The notes under the pieces were generated by a model, which was not told where the DNA came from, made no database searches, and saw only the letters and a program-made list of their open reading frames with translations. A DNA stretch of 64,000 nucleotides from Octopus vulgaris (lineage: Eukaryota), in contig OX597815.1 of the NCBI GenBank assembly GCA_951406725.2, positions 54,808,001-54,872,000 on the forward strand, read 5' to 3'. Made by a program: the position numbers and the translations under genes. Of this stretch, positions 251 to 60,567 are shown piece after piece (position 1 is the first letter of the stretch; each line of letters starts with the position of its first letter).

Positions 251-1089
251 TAATGTACAGAATGTTGATTTCTAAATTTAGCAGGAGACTCCAAATTCTT
301 CGACAGCAATATTTCGCCTATCACCACCCAATATGCCACAGCTTTCAATGATTATTGACCTTTAACATTTGTAAGATTTGGGGGCTAATTATCTGCGAAG
401 TGCCATCATTTCAGGCGTGTGGACTTGGACCCAGGGGAAATTATATGTATTTCTCAACAAGGTCACCCGACAACCGTGTTGTAAATCGAACCAATGACTT
501 ATGTTTGTGAATGTAACATGAAATTAGGCTATTAGGCTCACGTTTCAAATTTTGCTGGTGCATATTTTAGATCAGAACGGAAAAAAATATGTATCTTAGC
601 ACTGAAAACATATTGTATCACCATACTGCTAGCATTGGTCCACGCACATTAACATTTCAAAAATGCACTTCATTCAAGTTTTTCCTTTTCCCAAATGGTT
701 AAGTTAAGAAGGATATAATTTTCACAGATTTATGGTATTGAAGTGACTGTCTATCGATTTACTAATTGAAGATATTTACTTCTTGGATAAATTCTTATCA
801 ACTCCCGAGTCAAGGTGGGAACAGCAAGTTCCCACGGTTTTTTATGCTATCTAATAGCAGTCAAATTTCCTTGAAATTTTTTAAGTATGGAATGACACAA
901 TTTATAAAGTGTCCGGGGAAGGATATGATGGTCACAAATGAGACAGCTTTCACATAGCTTTGTTCTATGAAGACTGATTTGAGGCTTAACAATAATTACA
1001 ACAAAACTAGAGAGAGACGAGGTAGAGAACGTGAGAGGTAGTGCAATATTTGTATACCTGTTGTATTTCTCAATATTCACTTTCTACAC

Positions 1090-2560
1090 GTATCTCATTA
1101 TGTGTCAACCCTATAAACATCGTTAATAGCCAACACATGTCGACACTTTTTCCATTCACTCCTGAGTATTAAAAAAATCATGTGCGTTGTTTTTTTTTTC
1201 TTTCGAAGTTACCAACATGAGCTCGATAATCTTATTACAATTTATACTTGGGTATCTAATATGCCAATTTTTCTTGGACAATGGAACTTGATTTACAACA
1301 TAAGAGAGACACCATGTCAATTTATCGTAATAAATTTAGCTGTATGTTGTAGGTGTGGATCTCGTGCTGCAATAAAAATCATTCGGTCACGGCTGTGAGT
1401 TATGCGCTTCTCAACCCCTGCTGAGATTCTTCTCCGTTTAATCTTATCAGATATTAGTCTTGTAGGCTGTTTTCTTGCAACCGTCTAAGATAGAAATTTC
1501 TATCTTAGTTTTTTTTAACAAATTTTGTTGTTATTTAGGCATTCTCTTCATATCGATCTGTTACCTTAGCCTCTTTTTTATATTTATTGGCTTCCTTGAG
1601 GACAAGTTTCTGTTCTGATCATGTTTTATCCTTTACTGGATATTTTTGTAGTTCTATGATAGATTATCATAATTTTCGAGATAGTGAAGGCTCTTCCTTC
1701 CTCTATTCGTAGTAAATATAAGTTTGCTGAGAGGAGCTTTAGAAAAAATGCATTGCTCTTGATGTACTGAGTTCAAATTCCGCCAAGATCAACTTTGCCT
1801 TTCATACTTCTGGGTCGATGAAATAAATTGCCAGTCAAGTATCGGAAAACACTCTTGTTTCAAACGTGCCAGCATGTGCCCTAAATTAGAAACGATTTTT
1901 TTTCTTGTTTTCTTGCCTGATCTTGTTAATTCACTTAGCGTCCAGGCAAGAATATCATAACAATAAATTATTAATGAGATAACTAATGTATCGATTCCTA
2001 ATATTCTATTCATAATATTAAATGTTTAAAGTACTAATTTTATGTCTGTAAAATCTTTTGTTGAGTTTGTGCGTTGTACACAGTCAAGTTCATTAACTCC
2101 TAAGTATGCGTAAGTCTATGTTTAGAATTCTCATACCATTGATTCTTTATCTAACATTGTATTAGTGGTATTCATTCATTCCTGTTCTTTCGAACTCGCT
2201 TTAGCATATTCTTTTAAACCGAATTCCATATAATTTCTTCTACTGTCTCTAATAATAGCTGTAGTCGTTCTTCTGCGGTTGTAACTTGAGGTCATCCAGA
2301 TATAAAGGATAGTTTATTGTTCCTCCCATCGCATTTATATTCGAATCCAGTTTGTTTAACATGTTAGCTAGAGATACTAAAAGGAAAGAAACAGATAGAA
2401 GGAATCTCTTTGAAATATTCATCTAAGATATTTCGTTCTTAAAAGAAATTCGCTTTCAAAATTCCCCTTTCCTTGTATCTGCAGAATTGTTATTTATTCA
2501 TGACATGGTTAATGTATATAAACAAAAACACTTGCATTACGGGCTCGCAAACTCTTCTGT
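1090..2560 (-). pseudogene. Degenerate R4/Dong-clade non-LTR retrotransposon RT remnant
   Basis: Minus strand encodes YLDDLKL (~2282-2303; cf. YMDDLKL), MEFGL, YAYLG and NRILGIDTLVISLIIYCYDILAWTLSELTRSGKKTRK (ORF 1789-2013), in R4/Dong RT/thumb order. Many stops; interrupted by a SINE piece near 1755-1900. Confidence 0.65.
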
Positions 2561-3869
2561 CTAAAAAGAATTTTTTTCCATCACCCATCCCCACCATCTG
2601 CTATTTATCTCTATCATGTGATTCTGCCCATCCCTTTCGTGCCATACGTTCTAACTAACTCACTTCGACAGATTTTACCTGGTTGTTTTTACACCCCACC
2701 TCTGTGGAATTTACTACTTCTTCACATCCAGCGTATTTTTTTAAAAGAAAGTATTTTTCTTTCTTCCGTGAGAAACGCTTTATACTCTGGTGAACCAACA
2801 CTATTCTATCGCATTCCTCTTGCCTATGTGCGTCACCCAATTTCCTTTACAAGTTACTCTCCATACATAGGACACTCCTACCACAAATGACTTGTGATTT
2901 TTTTATATGATTTTTCTCCACATGCAGAACGCGTAAATTTTTATTCTAGTGCTTTATAGTAATTAATTTATCTCCAATTTTTTTTTACTCCTCTAATCGC
3001 TTTGAGCGCGCATCTTTTTCTCATTTTCGCTTCTCTTATTCATACCTTCCTTCCATATAACAGCGTCTCACACCCACATTCTTGAACCCACTTCCGTCAA
3101 ACCCTCTACTAGCGCCTGCTTCCACCTCAATTCCACGCTTTCCTTACACACTTACACACACACACACACACACACACCAAAACCTCGCGACCTCACTTAT
3201 CCACTCCACAATATTTCTGCACTTGTAAACCTCTTCTCAAGAATATATACACCACAAAACAAATACACACTCCTCTGACATATGCCCCTCTCTAAATACG
3301 GTTACACTTTACCTGAAGGCATTTTTATTGTTTGCCATGCCACCTAAAACTACAACATCAATACAAGAGGTTTTATAGCAATAAAGCTATAGGATAGCAT
3401 TCTAAAAACATTGTATCTATCTTGTTTATGCATACACACGTGTGCGTATGTGCATGTGTCTGTCTGTCTGTGTGCGTGTATACGTATGCGTTACCAATGA
3501 CGAGGTAACTTAAAACTACTAGCGAAAGCATTGTACATGGTAATACCAAGATACGAAGTCATGTTCTTTAATGAGTGACAGCTGTAAATATTCATACATA
3601 CATACTTACATACATTTACATATATACCAATAATAACTGGTGCAATAAGTTTTGTGATAATCTGGAAAAGTTGGAATTTCCAGAAAAAGAAATCAATATG
3701 CAAGTTGTAAGGAGAGCAGTTAAAATATGCGTGGCTTTTCTCATGGTGAAAGTGCGAATAGTTCTTGTTAGCTGCATTCCAGCGATAAAACTTTATGTCT
3801 ATGTTAAAAGCCAACTCTTTCCTTACAGGAAAGACTTACATTAGTTAAAACAGAAGAGAGCACACAAAC

Positions 3870-3900
<31 letters not shown>

Positions 3901-3910
3901 CACACACATA

Positions 3911-3946
<36 letters not shown>

Positions 3947-3959
3947 GTATATTTGTGTG

Positions 3960-4007
<48 letters not shown>

Positions 4008-4008
<1 letters not shown>

Positions 4009-4341
4009 TTTATTTTTTACTTGTTTCAGTTATTAGACTGTGGCTATGCTGGGGCACCGCCTTGAACAATTATTTTAGTCGAATGAATCGATGATAGTAC
4101 TTATTTTCCGATAAGCCTACTACTTATAGGGGACGTAAGCACACCAACACCGGTTGTCAAGCGGTGGCGGGGAACTAACAAAAACACAAAGACACATACA
4201 CACACACCCATACGGAAATGTCAAACGACGAGAATGAGTGCTCAACACTGCATTGGCCGATAGAATTTCTTTATTGGCGTGTTGATGCTACTATTGTTCC
4301 ATGTTAAGAAAATCATTATATCTTAACAATTTTGGCTGAAA

Positions 4342-4419
<78 letters not shown>

Positions 4420-4560
4420 CGGGCTTCTTTCAGTTTCCGTCTACCAAATCCACTCACATGGCTTTGGTCGGCCCGAGGCTATAGTAGAAAACATTTACCC
4501 AAGATACCACTCAGTGAGATTGAACTCAGAATCATGTGGTTGGAAAGCAAGCTTACATAC
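4008..4560 (-). mobile_element. CORE-type tRNA SINE with internal microsatellite
   Basis: Matches the family at 25237-25580 and 53490-53902 (head ...ACCACATG..., GTAGACGGAAACTGAAAGAAGCCCGTC, tail CTGAAACAAGTAAAA). Confidence 0.7.
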
Positions 4561-6314
4561 TGTATAAAGGATTATATTATCAATGAATGAAACAGTCATC
4601 TAAATGCTTAGAAGCCCCAGATTTGTGTTTTGTTTGCAAAGTCAAATATCCTTAAAAATCCGTCAAAGTCACTACAAACTGCGCTTTCTTGAACACTAGA
4701 CGTCGATGCACATTTCGAAGGATAGTTTATTCGACAATATTTCTATTTGGCTTGAAGCCAGGTTGAAAAATTAGCAATAATTCCTAGTCCTGCGGGTAAT
4801 GCTCGATTAAAAGGCTTGTCACTTGTGCACAACTGATAATTCTTTTTCTGCCTCATTTTATGACCATTTGGGGTAATCAGTATTTTAGATGTTCTACAGT
4901 ATGATATTACTCTGTACTAGACGTTAATGGAGCGACCTTTCTACCGATGATAGACAAGCTACGGAATTGTCAGTGATCCACATTCAACATGAGAGGGAGA
5001 TATCCAGTTATCTTGTAAAGCGTTTACAACTGCTATAGTGCAATAGTGTATGACGAACGACTCACAAAAAACATGCACAGAAAATTAGCAATGTTTATAC
5101 AACCTAAATTACAACATTGCTGCATGGTGACAGCTGTTTAGTTTGCTAAGTACTTAGAATGTATAAGTATATAAGTGAGTTCATGGTTGGTTGAGTCAAG
5201 TGATGTATTTGTATGTATAATAGTACTTGCGTGTGTAAATGTGTTTATTTAACTTGCCGTGTGTGACTGTTTTTTCATATGAGTGTGCGTGACTATATGT
5301 TAATATGTGTATGTGGGTGGATGTATGTGTGTATGCGTATGCGGTTAAGTGTTTAAGTGCATGTTGAATACATCTGATATAATAAGTGAAAATTATTATT
5401 TTTTAAAGACCAAATATACTCTTTACTCTTTTACTTGTTTCAGTCATGTGACTGTGGTCATGATGGGGCACCGCCTTTAGTCGATCAAATCGATCCCAGG
5501 ACTTATTCTTTGTAAGCCTAGTACTTATTTTATCGGTCTATCGAAAGTATATTTATAAAAGTATCTTTTTATTTGTTGCTTTTTTTTTTGTATTTCATTT
5601 TTACTATCTGAAGGAATGTCATCTGTTTGAACGGCAAAAATCAAAATGTTTCAGCCACGTTAGTCTTCTCTGTCCCTTCTACTTATGGAATTAATTATTT
5701 TATGAACCTACTGCAAGACCCCTTCCACATATACCCACATGTTTTCTTCAAAATTCGTCAATCTGAACATCAACAACATCAATCTGCTTCATCTTGAAAA
5801 GAGTAGTTGCCAGGTCAGTCTATAATAGAAAGTAAAATGAAAGGAAGAATGCAAGTCTTCTGTCAATAATTGGAACTGCACCGTTCCATTATATTTTAAT
5901 CGTAAATTATCTTTGAAATAGCTTCTTACGTTGGAACAAGTTTCGAGGAACGGATGTACTCGCCTCATTTGACCCTAAAGGATACAACTGAGGCAAGATA
6001 TGTGAGGGAATATAATTTGGCAGCTATTTCATGCGAGTCGAGCGACCGCGTTAAGACTTCCTTGTTGGATTACGAGTGGGTGTAAGTTTAATGATACAAC
6101 AAGCAGACCATTGTGTGGTGAGGAGGTGGGAAACAACTTAATAACTATCGTTTTGAGTTATTTTACATACTCTCTCTGCCTCTCGTTCTAACTCACTCTC
6201 TCTTTCTTTTCTCTGTCTCTCTCACCTTCTCTCTCCCTCCCCCTCTCTATATATATTTATATATGTATATATGTGTGTATGTATATATATGTATGCATGT
6301 ATATATATATACAC

Positions 6315-6385
<71 letters not shown>

Positions 6386-6489
6386 GTTAATCCAAACAAG
6401 AAAACACAAAAAAAAACACAACGCGAGGACGTGGAACAAATATAGTATTATTGGACGCTCAGGATTAGCAATAATCCTGAAGAAGGATG

Positions 6490-6524
6490 GTTTAACGTTT
6501 CAAGCGGAGCTCTTCGTCGGAAAC
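6490..6524 (-). ncRNA. Minimal type I hammerhead ribozyme motif in a PLE-like fragment (6386-6568)
   Basis: Minus strand: GTTT-CCGACGA-A-GAGC-TCC-GCTT-GAAA-CG-TT-AAAC. Palindromic ACGT stem III; fragment flanked by (TA)n. Confidence 0.55.
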
Positions 6525-6564
6525 ATAGGAGAAGGAAAGATCCAGAGAAGGGAAGACAGAGGAA

Positions 6565-6626
<62 letters not shown>

Positions 6627-6630
<4 letters not shown>

Positions 6631-7870
6631 GTCATTAAGAATGAAATGTCTGATTTTGAACGGAAAGTTTATTTTACTTTATCTCAACAAAAAACAAAGC
6701 AACAAAAAGCAATCAAAGTATGCGCCTAAATTATCAACACAATTTTGCCATTTTATCGGTAGCTTATTTATGCCGACAGGGAAGAATTCTGGGGAGCAAA
6801 AGGTAATGAAATCACGAAAGGATGTTTTTGCATTTTCTCCAGATTTGAAGTAGTTTTTTTCTTGCAAAAAGTTGTCCCATGACTGGAAAACGTGATAGTC
6901 AGTTGGTGCAAGGTCTGGTGAATATAGTGGATGACAGAGTACTTCCAAGTTCAATTCATGTATCTTGAGTAGCGTTCTTTGTGCAACATGTGGCCAAGCA
7001 TTGTCTTGCAAGGGAATTGGCCTGTCTCTATTGACCAATCTCGGTTGCATAATTGCAAGTTCACTCATCTTTTCATTCAACTGGTTGATGTATACATCCG
7101 CTGTAATTGACTTCTCATGAAGCTGTAGCGGATGACACCAACGCAGGACCACCAAACAGACACCGTTAGCTTTTTTTTTTTATGAATATCCTTTTTTTCT
7201 TTATTGTGTTTTGACATTTCATCTCTATCTAACCACCATGCAAAACGCTTGCTATTGTTGAAAAACATCTATTTTTCGTCACACGTAACAATACGACGCA
7301 AAAATGGTTCGCTTTTATGCCGCGACAGCAAAGAACAGTAAGTTTCAAGACGACGTGTCATTTGATGCTCGTTCAGTTCGTATGGTGCCCACTTGTCTAG
7401 CTTCTTCACATTGCCGATTTGTTTCAGATAGTCCAATACAGTTGGAATCGAAACATCAAAACTTGCTGCTAACTCACGCATAGTCTGAGATGTATCCACT
7501 TCCACTACAGTTTCCAGCTCATCATTAATCACCTTGGTCTCAGGTCTACCATGGGGTTGATTTTCAGGAGTAAAGTCACCAAACCGGAACTTCTCCAACC
7601 ATCGATGTACAGTGCACTCATTCGCCACGTCTTCACCAAACACCTCATTGATGTTTCGAGCTGTCTGGGATGCATTGGTTCCACAACGGAACACGATTTT
7701 TTTTTATCTATCCATGGTTTCACAAAAATTGATTTACAAGAGAAAACTCATAATATAATCAAACACGATTAATTGCATTTCAAAAACTGATGATGTAACT
7801 CTTCAATGTTGTAAAACAAAGAATTGTCAGGATAAAACATAAGAGTTAACGACTGTCAGACTTAGTGCAT
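6627..7870 (-). mobile_element. Mariner (DD34D) transposon, transposase disrupted
   Basis: ORFs 7269-7694 (HTH, WAPYEL, RIVTCDEK) and 6679-7155 (QDNAWPH, YSPDLAPTDYHVF). Stop and frameshifts present; begins in (TA)n. Confidence 0.9.
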
Positions 7871-8959
7871 AGAATTTATTAGTTAAGACCGTCAAAAGGA
7901 TTAAATCTATCCATTTACTGTTGCCATTTGATTTGATAATCAGTAATTTTCCACAGAGGTAATCTAAGTATTGGATCAACTTTAAACACTCTGTAGTTCA
8001 TAAACATTGAAAGCAGCATTGTACTATATCAACAGAGCATGTACAAATTCATTCAGTTGGAATTGACAGCTTACAAGCATTTTGTGCAGGGTCCATAGCA
8101 TATGGCATCATGCTAGGTTAATCCTGACCCGGGTGTGCCTAGTAGACCTTTATGGATCTGAGTGTTGACCTATAAATATGAAGAGGTACTGCATGCCATG
8201 GAAATGCAGAAGCTTCGCTGTGCTCTGGGCATGACTCGTCGATGTGTGGGTAGTTATGAGAATGGCGCCCATCATTGACAATATGTGTGCCATGCGTCTC
8301 CGAGGAATGCATATGTGAGATGCAGTGATGAGCATTCGGTAACCAAAACAACAATGAGAATCACTTCAAATGAACGATTACTGAGCGGACAGTAAAATAA
8401 ACGAGTTAACCCCTCTAAGCTGCCTTCAACCTGATCGAGTGGAAGAAGGTAAGCGAGAATGTAGACTCCATTCGAGGTACAACACACGTTAGGTTATTAT
8501 TATGTGTGTATCAGTCTGTGTACGTGGGTAGGTGTACGTGTGTGGTCGTATGTTTGTGCGTGTATGTGTGTGTGCGGGGGTGTGTATGTCTTTCCTCTCT
8601 CTGTCTGTCTGTCTCTTTCTCTCTCTCTCCTTCTTTTTCTCTTCCCCCTATCTCCCTCTTGCTAGCTTCCCTGACTGACTAGTTTAAGCTCGTTTGCTGA
8701 CTGACAGCAAGCTTAGTAGTGGGTTCTGTTTATAGTCTTTTTTTTCTGCTTGCTATCTTTGTTTTATGAAGAGGTGTGATAAAGCATAGTTACATATATA
8801 AGACACAAATAACAAGCAGCAGTAGAAACATCGTCAGCGACGCGACAACGAGAGGCCACATACATATATAGATAGACAGAACCAACATCGAAAGCGACAA
8901 CAGAGGAAAGAAAGTAATTACGAATAGCGACTTCCAGCATTTCTACCATGTTAGTAGAT

Positions 8960-9013
<54 letters not shown>

Positions 9014-9206
9014 GTACAAAACCAAATATATTGCACCCAAAGCATAACACCAACATGAACTTCTAACTTGTCTCTTGAGGTCTCTGGGTGAGACTTGGAA
9101 CCAACTTGTACAAATGCAAAACAAAAGTCAAAGATAAAATAATAATAATGATGACGATGATGATGATAATTAACAACAGTACGTTGTAATACCAAGATAT
9201 ATACAT

Positions 9207-9242
<36 letters not shown>

Positions 9243-9278
9243 TGGTAAAAACGGTAAGATAACAAATGAAAGAAATAC

Positions 9279-9313
<35 letters not shown>

Positions 9314-9729
9314 TAAATTGTATCGCCCATCAAACGACCATGCACGTCATTTATATATATATATAAACAATCATATGCGTTCACATGCACACGGACACAC
9401 ACACACACACACACATACACATAAATATATTTGTGCGCATGCATGTACACGCACACACACACACGCATATGTATGTATGTATGTATGTATGTACTAGCTC
9501 ACATAAGAGAGATGAGATAGATGTTTTTTATATACCGTATGCTTGTGTGCGTGTGTGCGCGTGTGTATGTCTCTAATAGTAGTAAACTTGTTTACCGTTT
9601 TTCCAAACTCATATTACTTTTTAATCACTTGATTTAATATTATATTTTTACTTTGTTTTATTTCCTTTTTAACATGCCTAGTTTTCTTTTTCGTATTTTT
9701 ATCCATAAACTAGATACAGACGCTTGACA

Positions 9730-10093
9730 ATGGAAGAGAGGGCTCAAAAACTCATCGAATTTCTTCGAAATGAATGCATTAAACGGGGATGTACATCAGG
9801 TATTAAAGGTCTGGGTCTCATTTTCCGATCAATGGACATCGATTTTTCTAAAAGATTATGCTTCGATGAACTGAAACTCGGTATCCAGAGATATGGAATT
9901 GAGATTAGCGATTCTGATCTGCTTATACTTTTCAATGCCATAGATATAGACAATAATAAAACTATTGATTTTGGTGAATTCATGCATAAGTTACGCCCAC
10001 CACTGACAGGAATTCGCCTGGCTGTTGTCAAAGAAGCATTTCAAAACTTAGATGTTAATAACGACACTGTAATTGCTGTGGACGATCTCAAAG
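9730..10093 (+). CDS. Calcyphosin-like EF-hand protein, coding exon 1
   Basis: MEERAQKLIEFLRNECIKRGCTSGIKGLGLIFRSMD...LRPPL...DDLK matches the calcyphosin (CAPS/CAPSL) pattern with 3 EF loops. Acceptor TAG at 9711-9713 follows a pyrimidine tract, implying an upstream UTR exon. Donor AAG|GTAAGA after 10093, phase 1. Confidence 0.92.
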
Positions 10094-10801
10094 GTAAGAA
10101 GCAAAACACTTTGTTTATTATGTTATTTATACCGCAATGTTTTGTATTGAGGAGGCCCTCGTGGCGAAATACAGAAATTATTTTGTTCTGAGTTTAAGTC
10201 CCATCGAGATCGTGTTTGCTTTCAGGATCGATTTCATCGATTATATCCAACCCTAGGTTTTGTGCCTATGTTAGAAAGTGTTGGCAGCGGAACTGTTTGA
10301 ATATCAGACAAAATGCTTCGTGATATTTAATTGCGGCCCTTTATGATCTGAGTTCACGACCTGCCCAGGTCACCTGAAACTTACATCCTTCAGAGATCGC
10401 TAAAAAAAAATCCCGAGATCGATTTAGTTGACTAGCAGCCTTTTTCTTCGTATATGTGGCACCGGGCCAGTCAGAAATTGTTATGTTAATGGTCATGGAC
10501 TAAATACCATGCGGTATTTTGTTATTCATTGTAAATATTGTATAGTTATTGTATTTAGCTATTGTTTGTATTGTACAAAGGCATAATAACTCTTAATAAA
10601 TTGTATTAGAAATGTATATAATCTAATGTAGTTAGTCATAAACGCATACAATCGGTCGATAAAGACTAAATAGGCATAACGTTTAAACTGTCATGAGCAC
10701 ACATACACATACATACTACGTTCATACACATAACCATACACACACATACACGCGCAAATGCACACTTGCACAATGTGTGCGTGCGTATGCGTGTGCGTGA
10801 T

Positions 10802-10835
<34 letters not shown>

Positions 10836-12102
10836 CGCGTGCTCTGAACGTTTACAAAAGTTATCATCAACTAGCCTAGATTTAATGTCAATATACATAA
10901 ACGAATACTTGTGGTGCTTGTATACATATACACGCATACATACATGTATGCACGCATGCCTACATGCATACATACATACATACAAACATGCATACATGCA
11001 TACGTACATGCATGCATACATGCATACATACATACAAACATACATACATGCATGCATGCAGACGTACATACATGCATACATACAAACATACATACATGCA
11101 TGCATGCATACATACATACATACATACATACATACATACATACATACATACATACATACATACACACATGCATGCATACATGCATACATGCACGCATAAA
11201 ATTCAATATCCAATTCAGTAAATAGCTAATACGTATTTTGATGTTACATAGGCCCAATTTCTGCATGCCTTTCACTTTCAATTTAACACTGACTTAAACG
11301 ACGCATCGTGAATTCCATCCTCAAATATTGTCAAGAATACAAAATGATTTGAGCCATTCGCCCAGTGTCCTTATTGAGTGAGGAGTGTGCTCGTTCTCTT
11401 CAGATAAATTAATTACTTTTTTGAATGTACGTATAAAAATTAGTAATTTATGTACGTATATAAATTAGTGCGCGCATGTGTGTTGCGCGCGCACACACAC
11501 ACGTGCATATGTGTGTGTATATGTGTATGTATGTATGTGTGTGTGTGTGTGAACACAGTTATATAAAAGATATAATCTACCGTATGATGTATATAATAAC
11601 GTTGTTGCTACAGCCCACTCCTACAATTCTCATAAATGTAATTACGTAAATACACTAAATCGTTTGCCTTTGGTATTTGGGTTAATTTTCAAAGAATTGT
11701 CATAGCCGTATGATTAAAATGTTGGTTTCGCATCAACGTGGTCTTGAGCTCTATCCCACTGCGTGGTATCTTGGGCAAATGCCAATTTCTATAGCCTCGG
11801 CTTGACCCATAATTTTCTGAGTAAAACTAGGTAAATGGACTCTGTAAAGAACCCATCGGGTGGATTTATCAGTAAATCAAAAGGGTACAGCCTGTCAGTG
11901 CAATAATCGACCACTTACACATGAATTCGGGTGCAAGTAATTCATATTACCGAAAAAATGGATCCGCCTCGTCGAACGACTGTGGTCCATAACTATAAAA
12001 CAGCAATAATGAATGCAGGATTTATATATGCATGTCTGTGTGTGTATCATGCGTGTGAGTATGAGTATGCTTCTGTAAGTATGTGTAAGTTTATATGATA
12101 TG

Positions 12103-12346: not shown

Positions 12347-12410
<64 letters not shown>

Positions 12411-12415
<5 letters not shown>

Positions 12416-12745
12416 CTTTATTACCCACAGGGGGCTAAACATAGAGGGTACAAACAAGGACAAAGTATTAAGTCGATTATATCGACCCCAGTGCGTAACT
12501 GGTACTTAATTTATCGACCCCGAAAGGATGAAAGGCAAAGTCGACCTCGGCAGAATTTGAACTCAGAACGTTTCGTCTGCCGCTACGTTCTGAGTTCAAA
12601 TTCTGCCGAGGTCTGGTCGACTTTGCCTTTCATCCTTTCGGGATCGATAAATTAAGTACCAGTTACGCACTGGGGTCGATATAATCGACTTAATACTTTG
12701 TCCTTGTTTGTCTCCTCTATGTTTAGCCCCTTGTGGGTAATAAAG

Positions 12746-12750
<5 letters not shown>
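12411..12750. mobile_element. Head-to-head inverted pair of 5'-truncated SINEs forming a ~340-bp palindrome in (TA)n
   Basis: 12411-12571 is the near-perfect reverse complement of ~12585-12750; both arms end in the tail GTTTAGCCCC..GTGGGTAATAAAGAAATA. Confidence 0.85.
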
Positions 12751-12806
<56 letters not shown>

Positions 12807-12986
12807 ACAGGACTGTCACGTTAAGTTGACAGTATACAACCACTCTATCGCTCCACCACCGTACATATCTCTATGAGATATTTAGAAATTTAATATTTCT
12901 GATTTTGGTGATCAGTGAATAAACTTCACTGAAAATATATATATATTTGCGAAGTCTAGACAAATATCTTCAGCGAGCAGGCCTTT

Positions 12987-14642
12987 TTGAATTTTTTCCT
13001 CGGTGTCGGTTATTTTGTATTACGGTTATTGTGTATCACGGTTGTGAGTTCGAATTCGTTGGTTGAACCTGTTTCGGCGTGGTGAATTGTGGAAGTTCTT
13101 TTTTCGAAAATGCAAACCCAAACTTATGGAGGAGCGGCAGGCAAGGGTCTGGCTGCGAGCGAGTTGCAGTTGGAGGAAGTGGTCGTCGAGAAGGAAAGCC
13201 TGAAGGAATACTTCAACAGTTTCAAGAAGGAGGGTGACTGCCTGAGGGTCACACTACCAGAAGACGAAGTGAAAGAAGCAGAGAGACGTATTGTGACATA
13301 TAGAACGTGGAACGTGGCTTCGAAGAAAATAGAAGTGGCAGAGATGGAGGAAATTGAGAGGTGTTTGCAGGAGATTGAAGAAAAAGCTACCTTCTATAAT
13401 AGAGGTAGAAAGTACGCGACGGTGGTAGTTCATTTTGAGAACGAAGCTGAAGCAAAGAAGAACGCTACGAAAATACTGAAAAATGAAAAATGGCTATTAC
13501 TACCTAGCTATTGTGGAAGACGAGCGGTGAGAATAAGAATCAGCAAAATTTTATCAGAATTGAAAATGGAGCGAATTATAGCAGCAACAATATTTAACTG
13601 TAAGGAGAATGTCGAGATATTGAAGATAGAAAGGTCGAAGGAAGTAAAGTGGTGGGGTTATGCAGTACAAGCGTTGGTACACATAACCATGCCAGACATG
13701 TATAACATCCCAGAAGAGTTGGTGTTCCCCGACGACACACGACTCAGAGTCGTGGTAGAGGGGAGACCCCCAGTGTGCTACACATGTAAGACTAGAGGCC
13801 ACATGAAGGATGTGTGTCCGAAAAAAAAAGTACAAGAGGAGATGATAACATTGGAGGCTCTGACAGAGGAATTGCAAATGGCGAATGTAGAAGAAGAAAT
13901 TGTGAATACAGATAATGTGGAAAGTGGTGACAAGTTGGTGAAGGAGGAAGAAAAGGAAAGAACAGAAGGAAAAGAAGGTAGAAAGAGAACGCGGGTGGAA
14001 TCACCACCTAAAGTACAAATAAAGAAAAAAGCGAAAAAGAAGACTACCGACGAGATGGAGGATCGAACGTACGAAGAGAAGGATGCAGAAGCGAAAGCGA
14101 GTGAACCGGCAAATTTAAAGGCAGGGGAAGAATGGGACAGAAGAGTGGAAGAGCAGTTAAAAGTATGTAAGGAAGGAGGAAGACCCAAGGGCGTTCATCT
14201 CAAAGTGGTAATATTGTACAAGAAGGACAAAGAATTTGAAAAGAAGTTAGCAAATAAGAAAAGTTTAATCAGAGTAAAGTTAAACCCCAAAATATTTGAT
14301 GACCAAGTGAAGGCAGAGATTGTGGAAAGAGAGACAATGATGAAATTGAAAAGTGTGTTTTCGGCTGTATGCGTAATGCAATATATCCGTTTTGACAGTT
14401 TGCCAGCTATTGTAGACCAGGAGAGGTTACTCGATCACATTACAGATGAACGCCCAGTATAACAAAATTGTATTTTAAATGAAACTGCGAGCTTGGGGAA
14501 CTCGTAAGACATTCCATTAACCCGTTATAAATAATTCATTATCATACCATACTTTTCGATTTTTTTATTATATGTACCCCATGTCCTGTATTGTAATGTC
14601 CCCTCTTAATTCGGGCCATCGTGCCTATAATAAAGATTTCAC
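12987..14642 (+). mobile_element. ORF1/Gag-only non-autonomous retroposon, copy 1
   Basis: 19-bp TSD CTTCAGC(G/T)AGCAGGCCTTT at 12968-12986 and 14643-14661. Single ORF, no RT, AATAAA near the 3' end. Confidence 0.8.
13110..14462 (+). CDS. LINE ORF1/Gag-like nucleic-acid-binding protein (RRM-like region + CCHC zinc knuckle), 450 aa
   Basis: Uninterrupted ORF from the first ATG at 13110. RGRKYATVVVHFENE is RNP-like; EGRPPVCYTCKTRGHMKDVC = C-X2-C-X4-H-X4-C (13776-13817); E/K-rich linker. Architecture resembles Tx1/L1-type ORF1. Confidence 0.8.
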   Translation: MQTQTYGGAAGKGLAASELQLEEVVVEKESLKEYFNSFKKEGDCLRVTLPEDEVKEAERRIVTYRTWNVASKKIEVAEMEEIERCLQEIEEKATFYNRGRKYATVVVHFENEAEAKKNATKILKNEKWLLLPSYCGRRAVRIRISKILSELKMERIIAATIFNCKENVEILKIERSKEVKWWGYAVQALVHITMPDMYNIPEELVFPDDTRLRVVVEGRPPVCYTCKTRGHMKDVCPKKKVQEEMITLEALTEELQMANVEEEIVNTDNVESGDKLVKEEEKERTEGKEGRKRTRVESPPKVQIKKKAKKKTTDEMEDRTYEEKDAEAKASEPANLKAGEEWDRRVEEQLKVCKEGGRPKGVHLKVVILYKKDKEFEKKLANKKSLIRVKLNPKIFDDQVKAEIVERETMMKLKSVFSAVCVMQYIRFDSLPAIVDQERLLDHITDERPV

Positions 14643-14861
14643 CTTCAGCTAGCAGGCCTTTGATGATGGGCAAGATCCAGAAACATGCATGTCTCTAGAT
14701 GCAGGCCTAGCTGTTGGGGGTGTTTGTCTCCCCTTCGTAAATATATAAGGACACAGGAAATATGTCAAGGCCGACAGGAAGCGTCGATGCTTCCTAGGGC
14801 TAAACAGCGGTGGTGTAATTCCTTTACAGGACTGTCACGTTAAGTTGACAGTATACAACCA

Positions 14862-14904
<43 letters not shown>

Positions 14905-14913
<9 letters not shown>

Positions 14914-15520
14914 ATTGGTGAATTGAAGAAATGGAGCTGAACGCAGATTGAACAGAAATCGTTTTATTTCATTCTACACGTGTTTCGAAAGGCACAAATT
15001 ACCAAAATCCGATTGAATAATGGGACCATATTGTGTCTTTCTCTTCAGGAAGAAAAAAGGAAATCCGTTAGAGAAACAAAAACAGAACAGAGGCGGAGCA
15101 AAAACCAAATCGAACTATGCTCCTAAGAGCCCATGGCGAAACCATGGGCTCTTAGGAGCATAGTTCGATTTGGTTTTTGCTCCGCCTCTGTTCTGTTTTT
15201 GTTTCTCTAACGGATTTCCTTTTTCTTCCTGAAGAGAAAGACACAATATGGTCCCATTATTCAATCGGATTTTGGTAATTTGTGCCTTTCGAAACACGTG
15301 TAGAATGAAATAAAACGATTTCTGTTCAATCTGCGTTCAGCTCCATTTCTTCAATTCACCAATAATGTTTTAATTTCAATTATCCGCACCAACGCACGGT
15401 TGCAACGCCAGATGGTTGTACCTCCAACCGTGCTGTTTACTGCTGTGATTTTTGCTACTAAGGTATCGGTTAACTTTTGATTAATCTACAACAAGATTAT
15501 TCATCTTTCTATTTCACATA
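14905..15520. mobile_element. PLE-like hammerhead element with a near-perfect 232/231-bp inverted repeat
   Basis: Arms 14905-15136 and 15142-15372 around loop CGAAA; (TA)n on both sides. Confidence 0.85.
15223..15309 (+). ncRNA. Type I hammerhead ribozyme motif with long stem II (mirror copy on minus strand 14968-15054)
   Basis: TTC-CTGAAGA-GAAAGACACA...TGTGCCTTTC-GAAA-CACGTG-TA-GAA; palindromic ACACGTGT stem III; GUA cleavage triplet. Confidence 0.75.
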
Positions 15521-15859: not shown

Positions 15860-16178
15860 ACATATATATATATGTATGTATGCATGTATGTATGTATTTA
15901 TATATATATAAGTTATTAGTTCTAAATCTCTGAACGAGATATATGCAACAGTACTTTAGAGTAAATTTTATTTGCCAACGCAGAGTGGCAAGTATAATTC
16001 TTGTCAATATATTTCGACATATTTATTGTCTTGTTATTGTCTCTCAGATGGCATGGCGGTCTAGGTATGAAGTCCAGAGCGCAACCATGAGATTCCGGTT
16101 TCGATCTCACTAAGACCGACTAATCCCATTAATAAAATAAATGGGATTCGGTAAACGTAATGTGAGCAGAAGTCTGAC

Positions 16179-16660
16179 ATGCATAAGATCTGGTCATCAA
16201 ATCTAAGTAGAGACTTCAAACTTGAAATATTCAAAGCCACAGTCGAACCAATTCTACTATATGGCTCAGAAACCTGGACGTTATCAAAGAAGCTTGAGAG
16301 GCGGTTGGATGGAACCTACACTCGCCTCCTTATGAGAGCTCAAAATCTCTCGTGGAAGCGCCATCCAACCAAAATGCAAATATATGGGAAACTACCACCT
16401 GTGCCATCTCTTGTGAAAGGTAGGGGAGTCCAGTTTGCTGGACATTGTTGTAGAGCTGAAAAAGAAGTAATTTCTACTCTTCTCCTCTGGAAGCCATCTA
16501 CTCGCAATACCAGAGGGCGCACACTCTCCTACCCTGATGTAATCTCCAGGGATACAGGCATCCAGCAACAGGACCTCCGTAATGCCATGATGGACCGTGA
16601 TGTCTGGCGTAGCATGGTAAATTCCATTGTCTCGACCACGGTCGAACAATGATGATGATG
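16179..16660 (+). mobile_element. 5'-truncated RTE-clade LINE
   Basis: ORF with ILLYGSETWTL...FAGHCCR...DRDVWR, (GAT)n tail, and perfect 11-bp TSD AGAAGTCTGAC (16168-16178, 16661-16671). Confidence 0.9.
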
Positions 16661-17555: not shown

Positions 17556-17616
<61 letters not shown>

Positions 17617-17618
<2 letters not shown>

Positions 17619-18172
17619 GCCCTGATGCAGTACCAGGCAGTGGCTCTCATGGCTTCTGATCTTAACTGATTGGAAGTGTTATCATGTACATTGTTTTGTC
17701 TTGGTATAAAAGATGGGCAACAGCAAATATTCTGCTCAATACCATAGATTTGCTTGTCAGTTGTTTGACCTTAACCAGTTGAGCATGTCCCTTAGTGGCT
17801 GACGATATGTGCATCTCTGATCACGAGCAGAAGTAGTGGGGGAGCATCATAGCCATGTGTTGAGAGGGATTCTTTGGGGTTTGAATAATTCACCTCTGGA
17901 AACATGGGTGGTTCTTTCAACATCCTTAAACAACCCTTATTCAGGGACCTTTTGAGCGGGATGGGCTACTCAACCTGAAGAAAATTCTAACTGGGCCCCA
18001 CCTGCAAGGTCATGTGCTGTTTATCTTGATATGAGATCACCATGTCGCGCACATATGGTTGTGATGCATGTGCCTGGTGTACCCTTATCAGACGGGTAGT
18101 CATGATGGGTATATTGGGCTTCGTATATTTTACCCCAGTGTCATTTTGATGGCATGCACTACTCTCTCACTC
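17617..18172 (+). mobile_element. ~550-bp (TAA)n-embedded interspersed repeat, possibly R4/Dong-related non-autonomous element
   Basis: Near-identical reverse copy at 60568-61096 and partial copy at 26428-26680; all lie in or next to (AAT)n tracts. Confidence 0.7.
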
Positions 18173-18228
<56 letters not shown>

Positions 18229-18248
18229 CAACAACAACAAAAATAACA

Positions 18249-26959: not shown

Positions 26960-27525
26960 TTTCTACGCTGGTGACAAGGCCCGAAATTTGGGGGAGGGGT
27001 CAGTCGATTAGATCGTAAATGAAATTAATTTATCGACCCCGAAAGGATGAAAGGTAAAGTCGAACTCAGCGGAATTTGAATTCAGAACGTAAAGACAGAC
27101 GAAATACCTATTTCTTTACTACCCACAAGGGGCTAAACACAGAGGGGACAAACAAGGACAGACAAACGAATTAAGTCGATTACATCGACCCCAGTGCGTA
27201 ACTGGTACTTAATTTATCGCCCCCGAAAGGATGAAAGGCAAAGTCGACCTCGGCGGAATTTGAACTCAGAACGTAGCGGTAGACGAAATACCTATTTCTT
27301 TATTACCCACAAGGGGCTAAACATAGAGGGGACAAACAAGGACAGACATAGGTATTAAGTCGATTACATCGACCCCAGTGTGTAACTGGTACTTAATTTA
27401 TCGACCCCGAAAGGATGAAAGGCAAAGTCGACCTCGGCGGAATCTGAACTCAGTATGTAGCGGTAGACGAAATACCGCTAAGCATTTTGCCCGGCGTGCT
27501 AACGTCTTTGCCAGCTCGCCGCCTT
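26960..27525 (-). mobile_element. Triple tandem/nested SINE, 184-bp period
   Basis: Junction GACGAAATACC|TATTTCTTTA at 27108 and 27292; the single full head ends near 27525. Confidence 0.85.
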
Positions 27526-29519: not shown

Positions 29520-29905
29520 TTCTACTCTAGGCACAAGGCTCGAAATTTTGGGGGAGGGGCCAGTCGATTAGATCTACCCCAGTATGCAACTGGTACTTAA
29601 TTTATCGACCCCAAAAGGATGAAAGGCGAAGTCGACCTCGGTGGAATTTGAACTCAGAACGTAAAGACAGACGAAATACCTATCTCTTTACTACCCACAA
29701 GGGGCTAAACACAGAGGGGACAAACAAGGACAGACAAACGAATTAAGTTGATTACATCGACCCCAGTGCGTAACTGGTACTTAATTTATCGACCCCGAAA
29801 GGATGAAAGGCAAAGTCGACCTCGGCGGAATTTGAACTCAGAACGTAACGGCAGACGAAAAACCGCTAAGCATTTTGCCCGGAGTGCTAACGTTTCTGCC
29901 TGCTC
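29520..29905 (-). mobile_element. Double tandem/nested SINE
   Basis: Same junction GACGAAATACC|TAT at 29680 as in 26960-27525. Confidence 0.8.
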
Positions 29906-30611
29906 TTCCTTTGGAAAGATTAATTATATATTTAATTTCAATATAAAAAAATTATTATAATTGTAAGGACTTCACAGAAACATATATTCCTTTACGTTGT
30001 GTTGCACCATATGTTTATCATCTTGTATTGATAGAGGAACACTTGGCATGTTGGCTGGTGCCTAGCTTAAAATGTCGACACTTATACTGAAATTTAAGGT
30101 AACTGACTTCGCTGGCTTTTACTATTATATGCTAAGGAAAAGGAAACGAATTAGGGTATAGTATGCCAACTGATAGGAAAATATAAACAAACCTAACAGG
30201 ATGTGCTCTATAATTGCTCTATAATTTTCAAATTAACACATGTTTGCACCAGTTTGAACTGGAATTATGATTTTGACTACCTTCTGCTTGTATTCGAAAT
30301 TGTAATCGGATAAGATATTTTGGTTGATTTTTTTTTTCTAATGTATTATTGATTTTAGTTGGGGTGAACCATTTTGCAAATGTATAGATACGTTAACTAC
30401 GAGATAAAGTTAAATAAAATTCCCCATATTATTCTATATGATGTGCGAATCATATTACCATAATTCCTAGTATTTATTTGTAATAAACGACTGTTTTATA
30501 GTAACAGAAATGTTCTTAAAATAAAAATGTATAAAAATTATGGCTAGTTAATACTTTCGTTTCCTATACGGCGCTGAACGTCAGTTCGTGTAATCTATTT
30601 ATATAAAAGAG

Positions 30612-31014: not shown

Positions 31015-33125
31015 TTGAGTCATCTCATAAGTACTGCGGTTTTTTCAATTGCGTGAACTAAAAGTCGGAGGGGGACGGGATAAACTACCTGCATCAACTT
31101 GCTATGAAAGCTGGTTATAATTTTACCTTGTCCTTATTCTTACTGCAAGTCGTATTTTTTAAAGGTGTATTGAGTTATATTGAAGTGTTAATTTTTGTGC
31201 TGCTTTGTAGTGGTTTACCGGTTATGCTTTCTCTCTGTTTCAAGAGAGATAGCGATGGCTAATGAAAAAATGTTCTATTCGGACCTTAGCGGGTCGGAAT
31301 TGTCCACTTCAGAGGAGGAATTAGTGAAGGCAGAAATCCGAATGGACACATGTCTTGGGAAAAAAAGAACTTAGCTGAGATAACGGGGTTAAAAAAGAAA
31401 TAAAATAGACTTGTCTATAATGGAAGAACATCAAAAAATGGCACATAAAGTAGGTGGTGACGTGAAGTTGTCGCCTCCACAGAAAGTTATGGAGGACATG
31501 ATAAAGAGAACCAGTGTTTATAAAGTTTATTCAGTGGAACAGAAAAAGGTAGACCAAGTAGAAGCCGAAACAATTGAGAAGGCGTTGTACATGGTATCTA
31601 AGGATATGGTGTTTTTGGCAAGAGGAAGCAAATATGGGTCGGTAGTGATCCAGTTCAAGACGGAGGAGGTAGCAAGGAGGCTGGCTGTAAACACGGTGAA
31701 GTCGAATAAAGTGGTCCTTCTACCTATGTGTCTTGGAAGGAGGACATGCAAGATCAGGGTAGAAAGAATCTCGCCAGACATAGATGTGGCTTGGGTTGTC
31801 CTCCTTGGAAGTGAGGAGGAAGTGACCGTCCTCCAAGCCGTGGAAACGGAGGAGGTGATGTGGAAAGGAAAAAACATTAGAACTTACTGTTCAGGCTGAA
31901 GTATAACCCTTGGAAGACTTGACGAAGACAGTGACTGTAGGAGACATAATCTTGAGAGTGTGGAGGAGGGCAGAATCCCACGCTGTTTTAATTGTGGCGA
32001 AAAGGGCACACTTCCCTCTGCAGAAGCATAGCCTGGGAAAAGTGGATAAAGAGTCGGAGAACCAAGAGGAGGTACAAATGGAAGAAAGGAAAAAGGAAGA
32101 ATTATGGACAGTGACAGAGGGGAGAAGGAAAAAGAGGAAGAAAGGACAGTGTGATGTGGAACCCCAAGCGATCCCCGCTCCACCCATAACCTCTCAGAGC
32201 CACCCTCTCCCCTCAGACACCAAACTCACCCATTCCCTTCTTTCACGATGTAAAAAAAGAAACAGACATCACAAGATACACAAAAGGTGGAAGACAGCAA
32301 AATTTGTGGATGCGGAGGGATATACTGATGTTGTAGGTTGGCACATGTGTGTGCTGGCGTCTCAGAGTCAGAAGGAAGTGATTGAAAAATATAAAAAAGG
32401 TTATAAGTATTGGAAGACTTATGTGAACTTGAAAAGGATACCGGTAAAAGTAGGATATGAGGAACTGAAAGAAAAATTCGGATTGGACGTTTTGAAGGAC
32501 TCGGGATTCAGAAGGAAGTAAGTGTTGCTGCTTGAGGTGGGGCAAGCAGCTCATTTTCATGTTTCATTTATGTTACCATATTTTTAATTATATTTTTAAC
32601 TTAATTTCTTTTTTTTCGTGTTATGTGTCCCCACATGTTTTTGTGTTGTCCCCTCTATGTCGGCCCTTGTGGATAATTAAAAATTCCTTATTCTTAGTGC
32701 AAGTTTTGAAGAGTGCAATTCGATCTTAACAGCAATTTTTTTAAAGATATAATGGAACTGACAAAGGAACATATTCGGCATATTTTGCTTTATGAGTTCA
32801 ATAAAGGCATCAACGCAACGGAAAGTGAGAGAAATATTAATGCAGTATATCGGGATCGGATAATAAGCGTAAACCAGTCTCAACTGTGGTTCCAGGAATT
32901 ACAATCCGGAAATTACAGCCTAGAAGACAAGCCTCATCCTGGAAGATCTGTAGAGCTCGACGAGGACGTCCTGCAAACCCAGGTGGAACAGAATTCCATC
33001 GTAACTGTTGAGGAACTAGCAGAGAAGTTTTGATTTAATCGTTGAACCAGTCATTCAATTCAGCGATAGAAGGAAAACGACCATTTTTGGTTTCTTCTAT
33101 TAGGGTAATGCTCGGCCACATCCAT
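31015..33125 (+). mobile_element. Truncated mariner interrupted in its 5' leader by an ORF1-only element
   Basis: TA + TTGAGTCATCTCATAAG terminus; transposase N-terminus MELTKEHIRHILLYEFNKG...WFQ...LEDKPHPGR from 32752. Confidence 0.85.
31151..32684 (+). mobile_element. ORF1/Gag-only non-autonomous retroposon, copy 2 (frameshifted)
   Basis: 20-bp TSD TCCTTATTCTTA(C/G)TGCAAGT at 31131-31150 and 32685-32704. RGSKYGSVVIQF..LLPMCLGRR is homologous to the 13110 ORF; EGRIPRCFNCGEKG is a knuckle remnant. Confidence 0.85.
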
Positions 33126-38990: not shown

Positions 38991-39583
38991 AGGCGACGAT
39001 CTGACAGAATCGTTAGCACGCAGGGCGAAATGCTTAGCAGTATTTCGTCTTCCGCTACGTTCTGAGTCCAGATTCCGCCAAGGTCGACCTTGCCGTTCGT
39101 CCTTTCGGGATCGATAAATTAAGTACCAGTGAAACACTGAGATCGATATAATCGACTAGTATCCTCCCCGAAAATATCAGGTCTTGTGCCTATAGTAGAA
39201 AAGATTATCATTATCATTAGTAGTAGTAAGGGGGCGAACTGGCAGAATCGTTAGTTCTAAGTTCAAATTCCCCCGAGGGCGACTTCGCCTTTCATCCTTT
39301 CGGGGTCGATAAATTAAGTACTAGAGAAACACTGGGGTCGATGTAATCGACTAATCCCCTCCCCGCAAACTTCAGGCCTTGTGCCTCAAATAGAAAGGAT
39401 TTTTTTAAGGCGTAGCTGTGTAGTAAGAAGCTTCCCAAGCACATGGCTCCGGGTTCAGTCCCACTGCGTGGCACCTTAGGCAATTGTCTTCTACTATAGC
39501 CTCGGCCGCCCAAAGCCTTGTGAGTGAATTTGGGAGACGGAAACTGAAAGAATCCGTCGTATATATATATATATATATATATA

Positions 39584-40590
39584 TAACAAAATAATAAATG
39601 AAAAATAAAACATATGCATATATACATACATATATGTACGAACCTACATCTATATGTATATATACATGCATATATAGGTACAGGACACAAAAAAAAAACG
39701 TCGAACACAATGAGAAACGAAAACATAAAAACAGAACCATGAAAACGGACATTTTTTTAAACAACGAAAAAACAGGGTACAAGACATACAATACAAGGAA
39801 AGTTCCCCTTCTTCAGCCGCCTCCGTTTCGTTAACTCCGTTGCGGAGGGGTAAAAGTGGTAACAAAAACAGGACAGTAAAAATAGGACAGTAAAACTACA
39901 AATAAAAATAAAAACGGTAAACGACAGGACAAGTAGAATAACAGTAATACGAACGTTAAGTGCTGTTAAGCCGAACGAAAGGAAAATTATTTTGAACGAG
40001 TGAGAACAACGGCATAAGAAAGGGATAGGATGACGTCTATACTTGTTGAAGGCTGTGTTCAGAAAGACAGAAGGACTCTGGTCACATGTCAGCGACGAGA
40101 GGGAGGAGGAGGAGTAGTAAGAGAAAGGGAACGGTGAAAGGGAGAGAATGGCAGAGAAAACCAGAAAGAATGAAGAATGAGCGAGAGGGGGACAGTAAGG
40201 TTAAGAGTGCGCATCATAATTATTAAGATAAAACTTACTTGGAAGAGGATGAGTGGCGTTTCATCACATAATAACAAAATGATAAATAAAAAATAAAACA
40301 TATGCATATATACATACATATATGTACAAATTTTCCTTGTGTTGTATGTCTTGTACCCTGTTTTTTCGTTGTTTAAAAAAATGTCCGCTTCCATGGTTCT
40401 GTTTTTATGTTTTCGTTTCTCATTGTGTTCGACGTTTTTTTTGGGTGTCCTGTACCTACATATGCATGTATATATACATATAGATGTAGGTACGTACATA
40501 TATGTATGTATATATGCATATATTTTATCTTTTATTTATTATTTTGTTATTATATGATGAAACGCCACGCATCCTCTTCCAAGTAAGTTT

Positions 40591-43883: not shown

Positions 43884-44390
43884 AACGTAAGGGGGATCAG
43901 CCATCTGAATGTGGCTAGGGACAGGGCGGGGTGGTGGGGGTGTTACTGATGCTTTTAGCCCCAGGCGATCATCAACGTCACCAGAAGGACTGACACCATA
44001 TCAGTGTCCTTGTTTGCCTGTAAAGGGAGGTCATCCTCCCTCGAAGATACGGATACTACATACGGACCGGTTTCGAGGTCATTGCCTCTTATCAACGTAT
44101 GGTAAGTACCGCTCTTCGATGAAGGATTCCCTCTACAAGCAACATATATAAGGTTTTTCACAGTAACTACTGTCACTGATGTAGAAAAACTGTCTGAAAA
44201 CAATAATAAATCTCTGAACGAGATACCCCGCCCTGTCCCTAGCCACATTCAGATGGCTGATTCCCCTTACGTTGTCGAGCAGTTACTGTTTATATCTCGT
44301 TCAGAGATTTATTATTGTTTTCAGACAGTTTTTCTACATCAGTGACAGTAGTTACTGTGAAAAACCTTATATATGTTGCTTGTAGAGGGA
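43884..44390. mobile_element. Retrozyme-like element (family B relative) with inverted partial copy
   Basis: 43884-44225 antisense unit plus 44226-44390 inverted segment; shares TTTAGCCCCAGG and AAAGGGA.GTCATCCT.CC with the 352-bp array. Confidence 0.8.
44059..44101 (-). ncRNA. Type I hammerhead ribozyme motif, U3-A8 core variant
   Basis: CATACG-TTGATAA-GAGG-CAATGA-CCTC-GAAA-CCGG-TC-CGTATG. Confidence 0.75.

Positions 44391-55518: not shown

Positions 55519-55605
<87 letters not shown>

Positions 55606-55611
<6 letters not shown>

Positions 55612-56332: not shown

Positions 56333-56340
<8 letters not shown>
55606..56340. mobile_element. Retrozyme-like element family A: 364-bp unit, ~1.5 tandem antisense copies plus inverted segment
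   Basis: Unit restarts at 55970; 56164-56340 is inverted; (TA)n on both sides. Confidence 0.88.
55828..55873 (-). ncRNA. Type I hammerhead ribozyme motif (family A)
   Basis: TCTAGG-CCGATGA-AGGA-CAATGA-TCCT-GAAA-CACGGTG-TC-CCTAGA. Confidence 0.8.

Positions 56341-56373
<33 letters not shown>

Positions 56374-60520: not shown

Positions 60521-60567
<47 letters not shown>

Follow-up and report, generated by a model that had tools for sequence, protein, structure and literature searches.

The window, that is, the whole stretch of 64,000 nucleotides of Octopus vulgaris DNA that was analysed, carries part of a calcyphosin-like gene and three related repeat copies, hereafter copies 1, 2 and 3, the first two of which are ORF1-only elements. 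The gene has an upstream exon at 9751..10094 on the forward strand (E 3e-23 to residues 25-137 of a calcyphosin-like protein) and a later exon at about 45040-45278, matching residues 141-208 of a solved homologue. Copies 1 and 2 sit in sense within its intron of ~35 kb. The copies of the window are best explained as passive intron insertions, copy 1 being still open, copy 2 decayed and copy 3 a fragment.

Structure and insertion of the elements

Copy 1 (12987-14642, forward strand) is bounded by target-site duplications (TSDs), a 19-bp direct repeat whose left (12968..12986) and right (14643..14661) units differ by one mismatch (18/19 identical). It is composed of a T/G-rich 5′UTR of 123 nt (12987..13109), a single, intact ORF encoding a type I LINE ORF1-like protein of 450 aa (13110-14462) and a 3′UTR of 180 nt (14463..14642), which ends, without poly(A), in a tail shared with SINEs (core from 14597). 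As only 180 nt follow its stop codon, copy 1 has no room for a reverse transcriptase (RT). It interrupts a host repeat, whose left part (12820..12967) resumes at 14662-14820 on the same strand: both flanks align in order with an uninterrupted paralog at 56047-55704, and contigs of the public sequencing run X1 join both flanks, skipping copy 1. The host repeat itself (12801-12967 with 14662-14872; 55600-56340) is a very abundant unit of ~350 bp, occurring head to tail, with many "goes back" joints and a depth >100000 in run X1.

Copy 2 (31151-32684, forward strand) is also a whole ORF1-only element, bounded by 20-bp TSDs (31131-31150 / 32685-32704, 19/20 identical); its ORF (31255-32521) is broken by frameshifts and stops and is followed by a 163-nt 3′UTR with the tail. 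The DNA between stop codon and right TSD is T-rich in both copies (180 nt in copy 1, 163 nt in copy 2), and ORF2, with its endonuclease and RT (EN/RT), is absent from both. LTRs are absent too, the best end-to-end repeat of each element being its own TSD, and the two 5′UTRs bear no significant likeness to each other (523/1000 shuffles). Copies 1 and 2 were each inserted as a unit with a TSD and a defined 3′ end, as expected of target-primed reverse transcription. The first-pass annotation of this DNA, which had described two TSD-bounded elements of 1.5-1.7 kb with an ORF1-like protein followed by a 3′UTR, is thereby borne out, and its reading of them as RT-less, ORF1-only retroposons of the HAL1 kind is supported by the layout, the TSDs and the type I ORF1 fold described below.

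Copies 1 and 2 are very divergent, as had been said of them: in a tblastn comparison 55 of 205 positions are identical (27%, E 2e-18). Both have the motifs RG.KY..VV..F and LLP...GRR; the knuckle, also given as shared, is complete in copy 1, whereas a frameshift divides it in copy 2. At the three codon positions, identity is 0.50/0.60/0.33 over 150 codons, aligned on the protein, which inflates the bias. These values clearly point to an old divergence under protein-level constraint between lineages; the bias may be older than the loss of ORF2.

Copy 3 had been placed at 62603 as a third copy of the family. The profile of the N-terminal domain matches only copies 1 and 2 within the window, and what is found is a 3′ fragment of ~480 bp (~62868-63346, forward strand), colinear with the 3′ part of copy 2 (0/300 shuffles). 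It contains the end of the C-terminal domain (up to 63144), a 202-nt 3′UTR and the tail. Its best TSD candidate is weak (13/15; 62853 / 63347) and is equalled by 1 of about 60 random regions. Copy 3 is 5′-truncated or internally deleted and is compatible with ordinary 5′ truncation. A twin-priming inversion was considered for copy 3 and rejected, as the N-terminal profile has no match there on either strand. The 5′ part of copy 3 (62868-62950) resembles the end of the copy 2 5′UTR up to the start codon, at 77/1000 shuffles; copy 3 may be an internally deleted mini-element, with a 5′UTR joined to the C-terminal domain, on a likeness which is not significant.

The relatedness of copies 1-3 is given by their 3′UTRs, which match for every pair (0/1000 shuffles), together with the tail. 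The C-terminal motif proposed as common to all three proteins did not hold up in that form: the C-termini of copies 2 and 3 are significantly alike (0/2000 shuffles), and that of copy 1 is not significantly like copy 2 (621/2000) or copy 3 (1374/2000). A broad profile of the C-terminal domain, made from 11 database proteins, detects it in copy 1 (0/2000), weakly in copy 2 (6/2000) and not in copy 3 (560/2000), and in the best profile alignments the end of copies 2 and 3 falls on another of the domain's motifs than in the register first chosen. The C-terminal domain may be homologous in all three copies, in copy 3 without support from the sequence.

The surroundings are rich in other repeats. 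Near-perfect inverted duplications with short spacers and arms 93-100% complementary lie at 12360-12801, 14905-15372, 39583-40550, 44128-44390, 56019-56340 and 56367-58561; two of them flank copy 1, and the one at 14905-15372 forms a palindrome with hardly any loop. These duplications may reflect genuine foldback or errors of assembly. Remnants of two mariner transposases, both with HTH domains of Mos1 type, are found at 6679-7703 (reverse strand) and 32710-33033 (forward strand), copy 2 sitting just upstream of the start of the latter. The 3′ end of a LINE ORF, which we take to be RTE-like, lies at 16161-16652 (forward strand; DUF6451 match below cut-off), and a 662-nt repeat, 93% alike between its occurrences, lies in opposite orientations at 17579-18240 and 60500-61161, adjoining TAA runs. 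An ORF fragment at 52978-53415 (reverse strand) has no Pfam match and presumably resembles a piece of a Helitron Rep. Rfam and ARAGORN find nothing within the window.

The ORF1 protein

The copy 1 protein was modelled with AlphaFold2 on an alignment of 58 sequences (mean pLDDT 79.5; above 90 for most of residues 21-250, below 50 at residues 268-336 and 81-94 at residues 361-440). In the model, an RRM domain (aa 49-136; 13254..13517) matches the structures of nucleolin (VIA Z 8.7, rmsd 2.3 over 76 residues) and La (VIA Z 8.7, rmsd 2.7 over 82 residues). It is followed by a second, RRM-like or ferredoxin-like domain (aa 136-220; 13515..13769; pLDDT about 95), best matched by ACT-like and ribosomal folds (Z about 7), and by a single CCHC zinc knuckle (aa 222-238; 13773..13823), which Pfam zf-CCHC matches at E 0.022, below its curated cut-off, and which is present in 27 of the 58 aligned relatives (E up to 1). 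An E/K-rich linker, predicted to be disordered (aa 268-336; 13911..14117), separates these from a C-terminal domain (14187..14432), predicted to be beta-alpha-beta-beta-alpha-beta and ferredoxin-like; all five are on the forward strand. The top Foldseek matches are tandem-RRM proteins, and the Atlas neighbours of the protein are eukaryotic CCHC proteins, most commonly of Mollusca, and ZCCHC3-like RBD clusters (0.91-0.93). Pfam gives no match to Transposase_22 in copy 1, and the ZCCHC3 RBD is absent among 25 listed of the 53 Pfam families matched by the 58 aligned members.

Type I ORF1s are defined by an RRM directly before a CCHC knuckle, as stated in PMC4120745, and in the predicted layout of copy 1 at least one RRM stands immediately upstream of the knuckle. 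The confident alpha/beta domains of the model leave no space for the helical capsid domain of an LTR-element Gag. By this prediction the copy 1 protein is a type I LINE ORF1 and not a capsid, and the earlier proposal of a capsid-like protein is not supported, the folded parts being RRM-like and ferredoxin-like alpha/beta in the model. In the second domain, copy 1 differs from the family at positions that its relatives conserve, so that its open frame is no proof that it is a working copy.

The C-terminal domain (the last ~85 residues) is conserved, as a profile of six database proteins finds it in copy 1 (iE 3e-14). It adjoins the protein end (within 26 residues) in 21 of the 22 proteins carrying it, a sample in which 11 are profile seeds and about 10 come from two clusters. 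It has no Pfam family, no Atlas match and no Foldseek match at E up to 0.001, and its best structural match is unspecific (Z 5.8). Modelled alone, it reaches a moderate pLDDT of 71 in the best of five models and 55-58 in the others. These searches neither name a function nor establish a new fold: the structure check suggested at first pass for the 450-aa protein and its C-terminus gave an RRM-type ORF1 fold for the protein and nothing specific for the C-terminus.

A 3′ tail shared with SINEs

Copies 1-3 all end, without poly(A), in the same short tail as the main SINE of the window, one example of which is at 12690..12750 (forward strand), and all terminate a few bases past an AATAAA-like motif. 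A scan of the 64 kb with the tail motif finds eight places, which are five SINEs and exactly copies 1-3. There are 21 matches to the SINE body in the window, 15 of which extend to the body's 3′ end. In five of these 15, the tail is most similar to those of copies 2 and 3 (scores 39-54, 0/500 shuffles), five have a second tail type, scoring 23-32 with copy 1 (0-3/500) and no higher with copies 2 and 3, and the tail of the remaining five has no clear match among copies 1-3. In tandem SINEs with a 184-bp period (27043-27525; 29562-29913), units with the two tail types stand one after the other. The hairpin of the tail does not exceed shuffled sequences in stability (z -0.75 to -1.62), and SINE patterns give 0 matches in genome, viral and metagenome contigs.

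SINEs commonly carry a tail recognised by the RT of their partner LINE (PMC4824008) and copies 1-3 share the SINE tail, so that a shared partner RT is the natural inference. Among the LINE-like fragments of the window, the tail is absent from the RTE fragment, the TAA-tailed repeat and the ORF at 22051. SINEs make up 11.7% of the O. vulgaris genome, according to PMC13282606.

Relatives, copy number and selection

A phmmer search yields 397 relatives at E up to 0.001, a number that falls to 108 at 1e-10; most of the relatives are fragments, and they are spread over many deep lineages, dozens at 25-50% identity. Among the 20 looked up, 14 are named and all of these are from octopods (8 Octopus bimaculoides, 3 O. 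vulgaris, 2 O. sinensis, 1 Argonauta hians). As these are protein matches without DNA context, a part of the 397, perhaps a large one, may belong to full LINEs as their ORF1. No RT or endonuclease domain is found by Pfam in 29 of the 150 listed relatives, a result of little weight, given that a LINE encodes its ORF1 and ORF2 in separate frames. Word-based protein searches add weak evidence: there is no match with the full copy 1 protein, and nothing with the copy 3 ORF against longer proteins or with the C-terminal alignment against proteins of 708-2020 aa. For protein P0137, none of 176 pattern matches in metagenome contigs was confirmed.

A tree was made from 50 rows, each covering 140 or more profile positions; P0044 and eight cluster members that are near-duplicates were left out, and P0007, a knuckle-repeat protein, was wrongly included. 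The topology is star-like, with copy 1 next to an O. bimaculoides protein (99/99) and copy 2 inside a less well supported group (90/86), the other members of which come from O. bimaculoides, O. sinensis and Argonauta. The tree is unrooted and 23 of its 47 inner branches are open, so that it is no test of a single origin. A distant clade (100/100), formed by P0100, P0151, P0155 and the P0101 cluster, has a longer C-terminal domain and 28 near-identical members on long contigs, which suggest recent activity; its proteins are possibly the ORF1 of autonomous relatives. Two O. bimaculoides gene models, P0044 and P0122, fuse an ORF1 piece to WD40 or RGS domains, by either mis-annotation or exonisation.

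Public sequencing runs, four of which were compared with copy 1, contain the element in pieces (best share 0.44). Run X1 covers every bin of the element, with summed depths of 538-11450 and 31-59 for the shallowest listed contigs; this suggests many copies, the depth itself being no copy number. Depth climbs toward the 3′ end (1210, 3949, 9626), the pattern expected of 5′-truncated copies, and is unbroken at the stop codon (1959 before, 1210 after). Diverged contigs continue past the stop codon into the same 3′UTR. The stop is bridged, with at least 31 letters on each side, by two of 32 listed contigs (4344 further): one is near-identical to copy 1, and the other is diverged, its fit being lost 36 bases into the UTR and its last 41 letters unmatched. 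The two best diverged contigs at the stop have 26 and 19 letters on one side, and a contig of run X12 holds the last 26 coding bases and the 3′UTR to the tail, with 18 differences. The three lineages of the window share the same order of ORF end, 3′UTR and tail. Element contigs also occur in two runs guessed to be RNA, and two of these contigs match copy 1 without a difference, at depth <3; as copy 1 lies in sense in an intron, no expression is claimed from them.

Synonymous changes are 13 of the 25 listed ORF differences, against 28% expected (transitions weighted 6 to 1; p 0.011), the 25 having been drawn from 40 of 364 rows, selected by program. Selection on the protein after ORF2 loss is thus weakly supported. 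The first view of the family as a long-lived lineage under selection accordingly stands as far as protein constraint during the divergence of copies 1 and 2 is concerned (0.50/0.60/0.33), and much less firmly for the time after ORF2 was lost. It is likely, though not proven, that the ORF2-less form itself propagated under selection.

Origin of the ORF1-only form

We consider it probable that the family consists of non-autonomous, protein-coding non-LTR retroposons of octopods, similar to HAL1 and HeT-A, the partner RT being most likely that of an L1/Tx1-clade LINE. Three other origins have to be weighed against this reading.

The copies could be spliced or shortened RNAs of two-ORF LINEs, repeatedly reverse-transcribed, with no replication of their own and with selection acting via the parents. 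The constraint on the protein would then be explained without an independent lineage; X1 variants do skip parts of the element, 14482-14610 being skipped in two runs, and a member of the P0151 cluster lies on a contig of 6159 nt, long enough for an ORF2. However, the listed internal skips have no GT..AG ends, the tail is on no RT-bearing fragment within the window, and the depth of X1 runs continuously across the stop codon. Taken together, this origin is improbable.

Even less credit can be given to retrocopies of a domesticated, ZCCHC3-like host gene family which happen to have a LINE-type tail. The intronless, TSD-bounded structure with one intact ORF, the ZCCHC3-like clusters among the Atlas matches and the annotation of certain relatives as Octopus genes would fit such retrocopies, but poly(A) is absent and the SINE-shared tail is present in all three copies. 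Moreover, dozens of lineages at 25-50% identity, mostly fragments, are the legacy of a mobile family, and two of the gene models look as if exons of the host had been joined to a fragment (WD40, RGS). Equally unlikely is an origin by dead internal deletions that arose independently in full LINE copies once these had been inserted. The decay of copies 2 and 3 and the parents not being seen would agree with it, but two lineages 27% identical have each lost precisely ORF2 while retaining a UTR of 163-180 nt, a third lineage has the same stop-to-tail order and the junction is repeated in diverged contigs.

Comparison with known ORF1-only elements

Non-autonomous LINEs in which ORF1 is present are a recognised class, with HeT-A, HAL1 and Ag-Sponge described in PMC5786205, and the ORF1-only kind is already known from mammals, flies and mosquitoes. 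The octopus element encodes, like these, a protein of LINE ORF1 type (RRM, RRM-like domain and CCHC). It resembles HAL1 (half-L1), a mammalian LINE derivative of several origins according to PMC5753468, in being non-autonomous and encoding ORF1p alone. However, the mammalian L1 ORF1p is of type II, with a coiled coil, one RRM and a CTD (PMC4120745), whereas the octopus protein is of type I, with a knuckle, an extra C-terminal domain and a cephalopod host. Mammalian L1 elements end in poly(A), in contrast to the SINE-shared tail of the octopus copies. By its ORF1p type and the lack of poly(A), the octopus element is therefore not a HAL1 in the strict sense.

HeT-A and the other ORF1-only telomeric elements of Drosophila (Jockey clade) also have an RRM-type protein with CCHC and use the ORF2 of another element, but they form telomeric arrays, whereas the octopus copies are dispersed, TSD-bounded, in an intron and other repeats, and have one knuckle. 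In Drosophila, ORF2 was lost repeatedly and ORF1-only lineages also spawn new ones, as reported in bioRxiv 10.1101/2025.06.09.658640. Ag-Sponge of Anopheles is likewise an ORF1-present, bipartite, non-autonomous LINE (PMC5786205), but derived from the CR1 clade, the comparison being one of descriptions. Type I ORF1s of the Tx1/L1 clade and ZCCHC3-like proteins share with the octopus protein the RRM-like domains immediately before a CCHC knuckle, the octopus protein differing by its single knuckle and its C-terminal domain without known family.

No description of the octopus family appears in the literature searched, including the relevant parts of PMC9115989 and PMC4758252, although Repbase, Dfam and the O. 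vulgaris library may hold it; in this repeat library, 11 LINE families are unclassified and 1102 families are listed as unknown, as given in PMC13282606. The family is real and probably an undescribed octopod member of the HAL1/HeT-A class.

Proposed mechanism and significance

An element without a copying enzyme must borrow one from another element. Its RNA would be transcribed from an internal promoter and bound by the ORF1 protein that it encodes, through the RRMs and the knuckle. The protein may co-assemble with the ORF1 of the partner, as proposed for HeT-A, HAL1 and Ag-Sponge in PMC5786205. The RT-endonuclease of an autonomous LINE would then recognise the tail and insert the copy by target-primed reverse transcription. 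The C-terminal domain would probably serve this ORF1 lineage as an additional module for RNA binding or assembly.

As no parent or partner LINE was found, its clade is a matter of inference. An L1/Tx1-clade LINE, from whose ancestors the element would have arisen by loss of ORF2, is the most likely partner, on the basis of the ORF1 type, the Atlas neighbours, the long TSDs and the active L1-Tx1 families of O. vulgaris. Long TSDs are typical of L1/Tx1. Type I ORF1s in non-mammalian animals fit the Tx1 clade according to PMC5203782, and PMC13282606 counts 80 L1-Tx1 families in O. vulgaris, 13 of them recently active; type I ORF1s are found too in I, Jockey, R1, Tad1, L2 and CR1 elements (PMC4120745).

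A bolder scenario, which we regard as speculative and rather unlikely as a whole, is that the ORF1-only state arose once, before the Octopus/Argonauta split, and radiated into dozens of parentless lineages. These would compete with the dominant SINE for one RT via the tail, the two SINE tail types having been captured from two lineages, and the free ORF1 protein, extra domain included, would act in trans as an RNA chaperone for the RNA of the partner LINE or of the SINE.

ORF1-only derivatives of LINEs are known from few lineages. An old, diverse and dispersed family in octopods would offer many independent lineages for testing whether ORF1p acts in cis on a non-autonomous RNA. The shared tail offers a way to trace the LINE by which the main octopus SINE is mobilised. 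Many Octopus gene models named "uncharacterized" or "CCHC-type" are probably pieces of this ORF1-only repeat, a family that annotation based on RT would overlook. The SINE tail, the depth of the radiation and a C-terminal domain without assigned family make a genome-wide census worthwhile.
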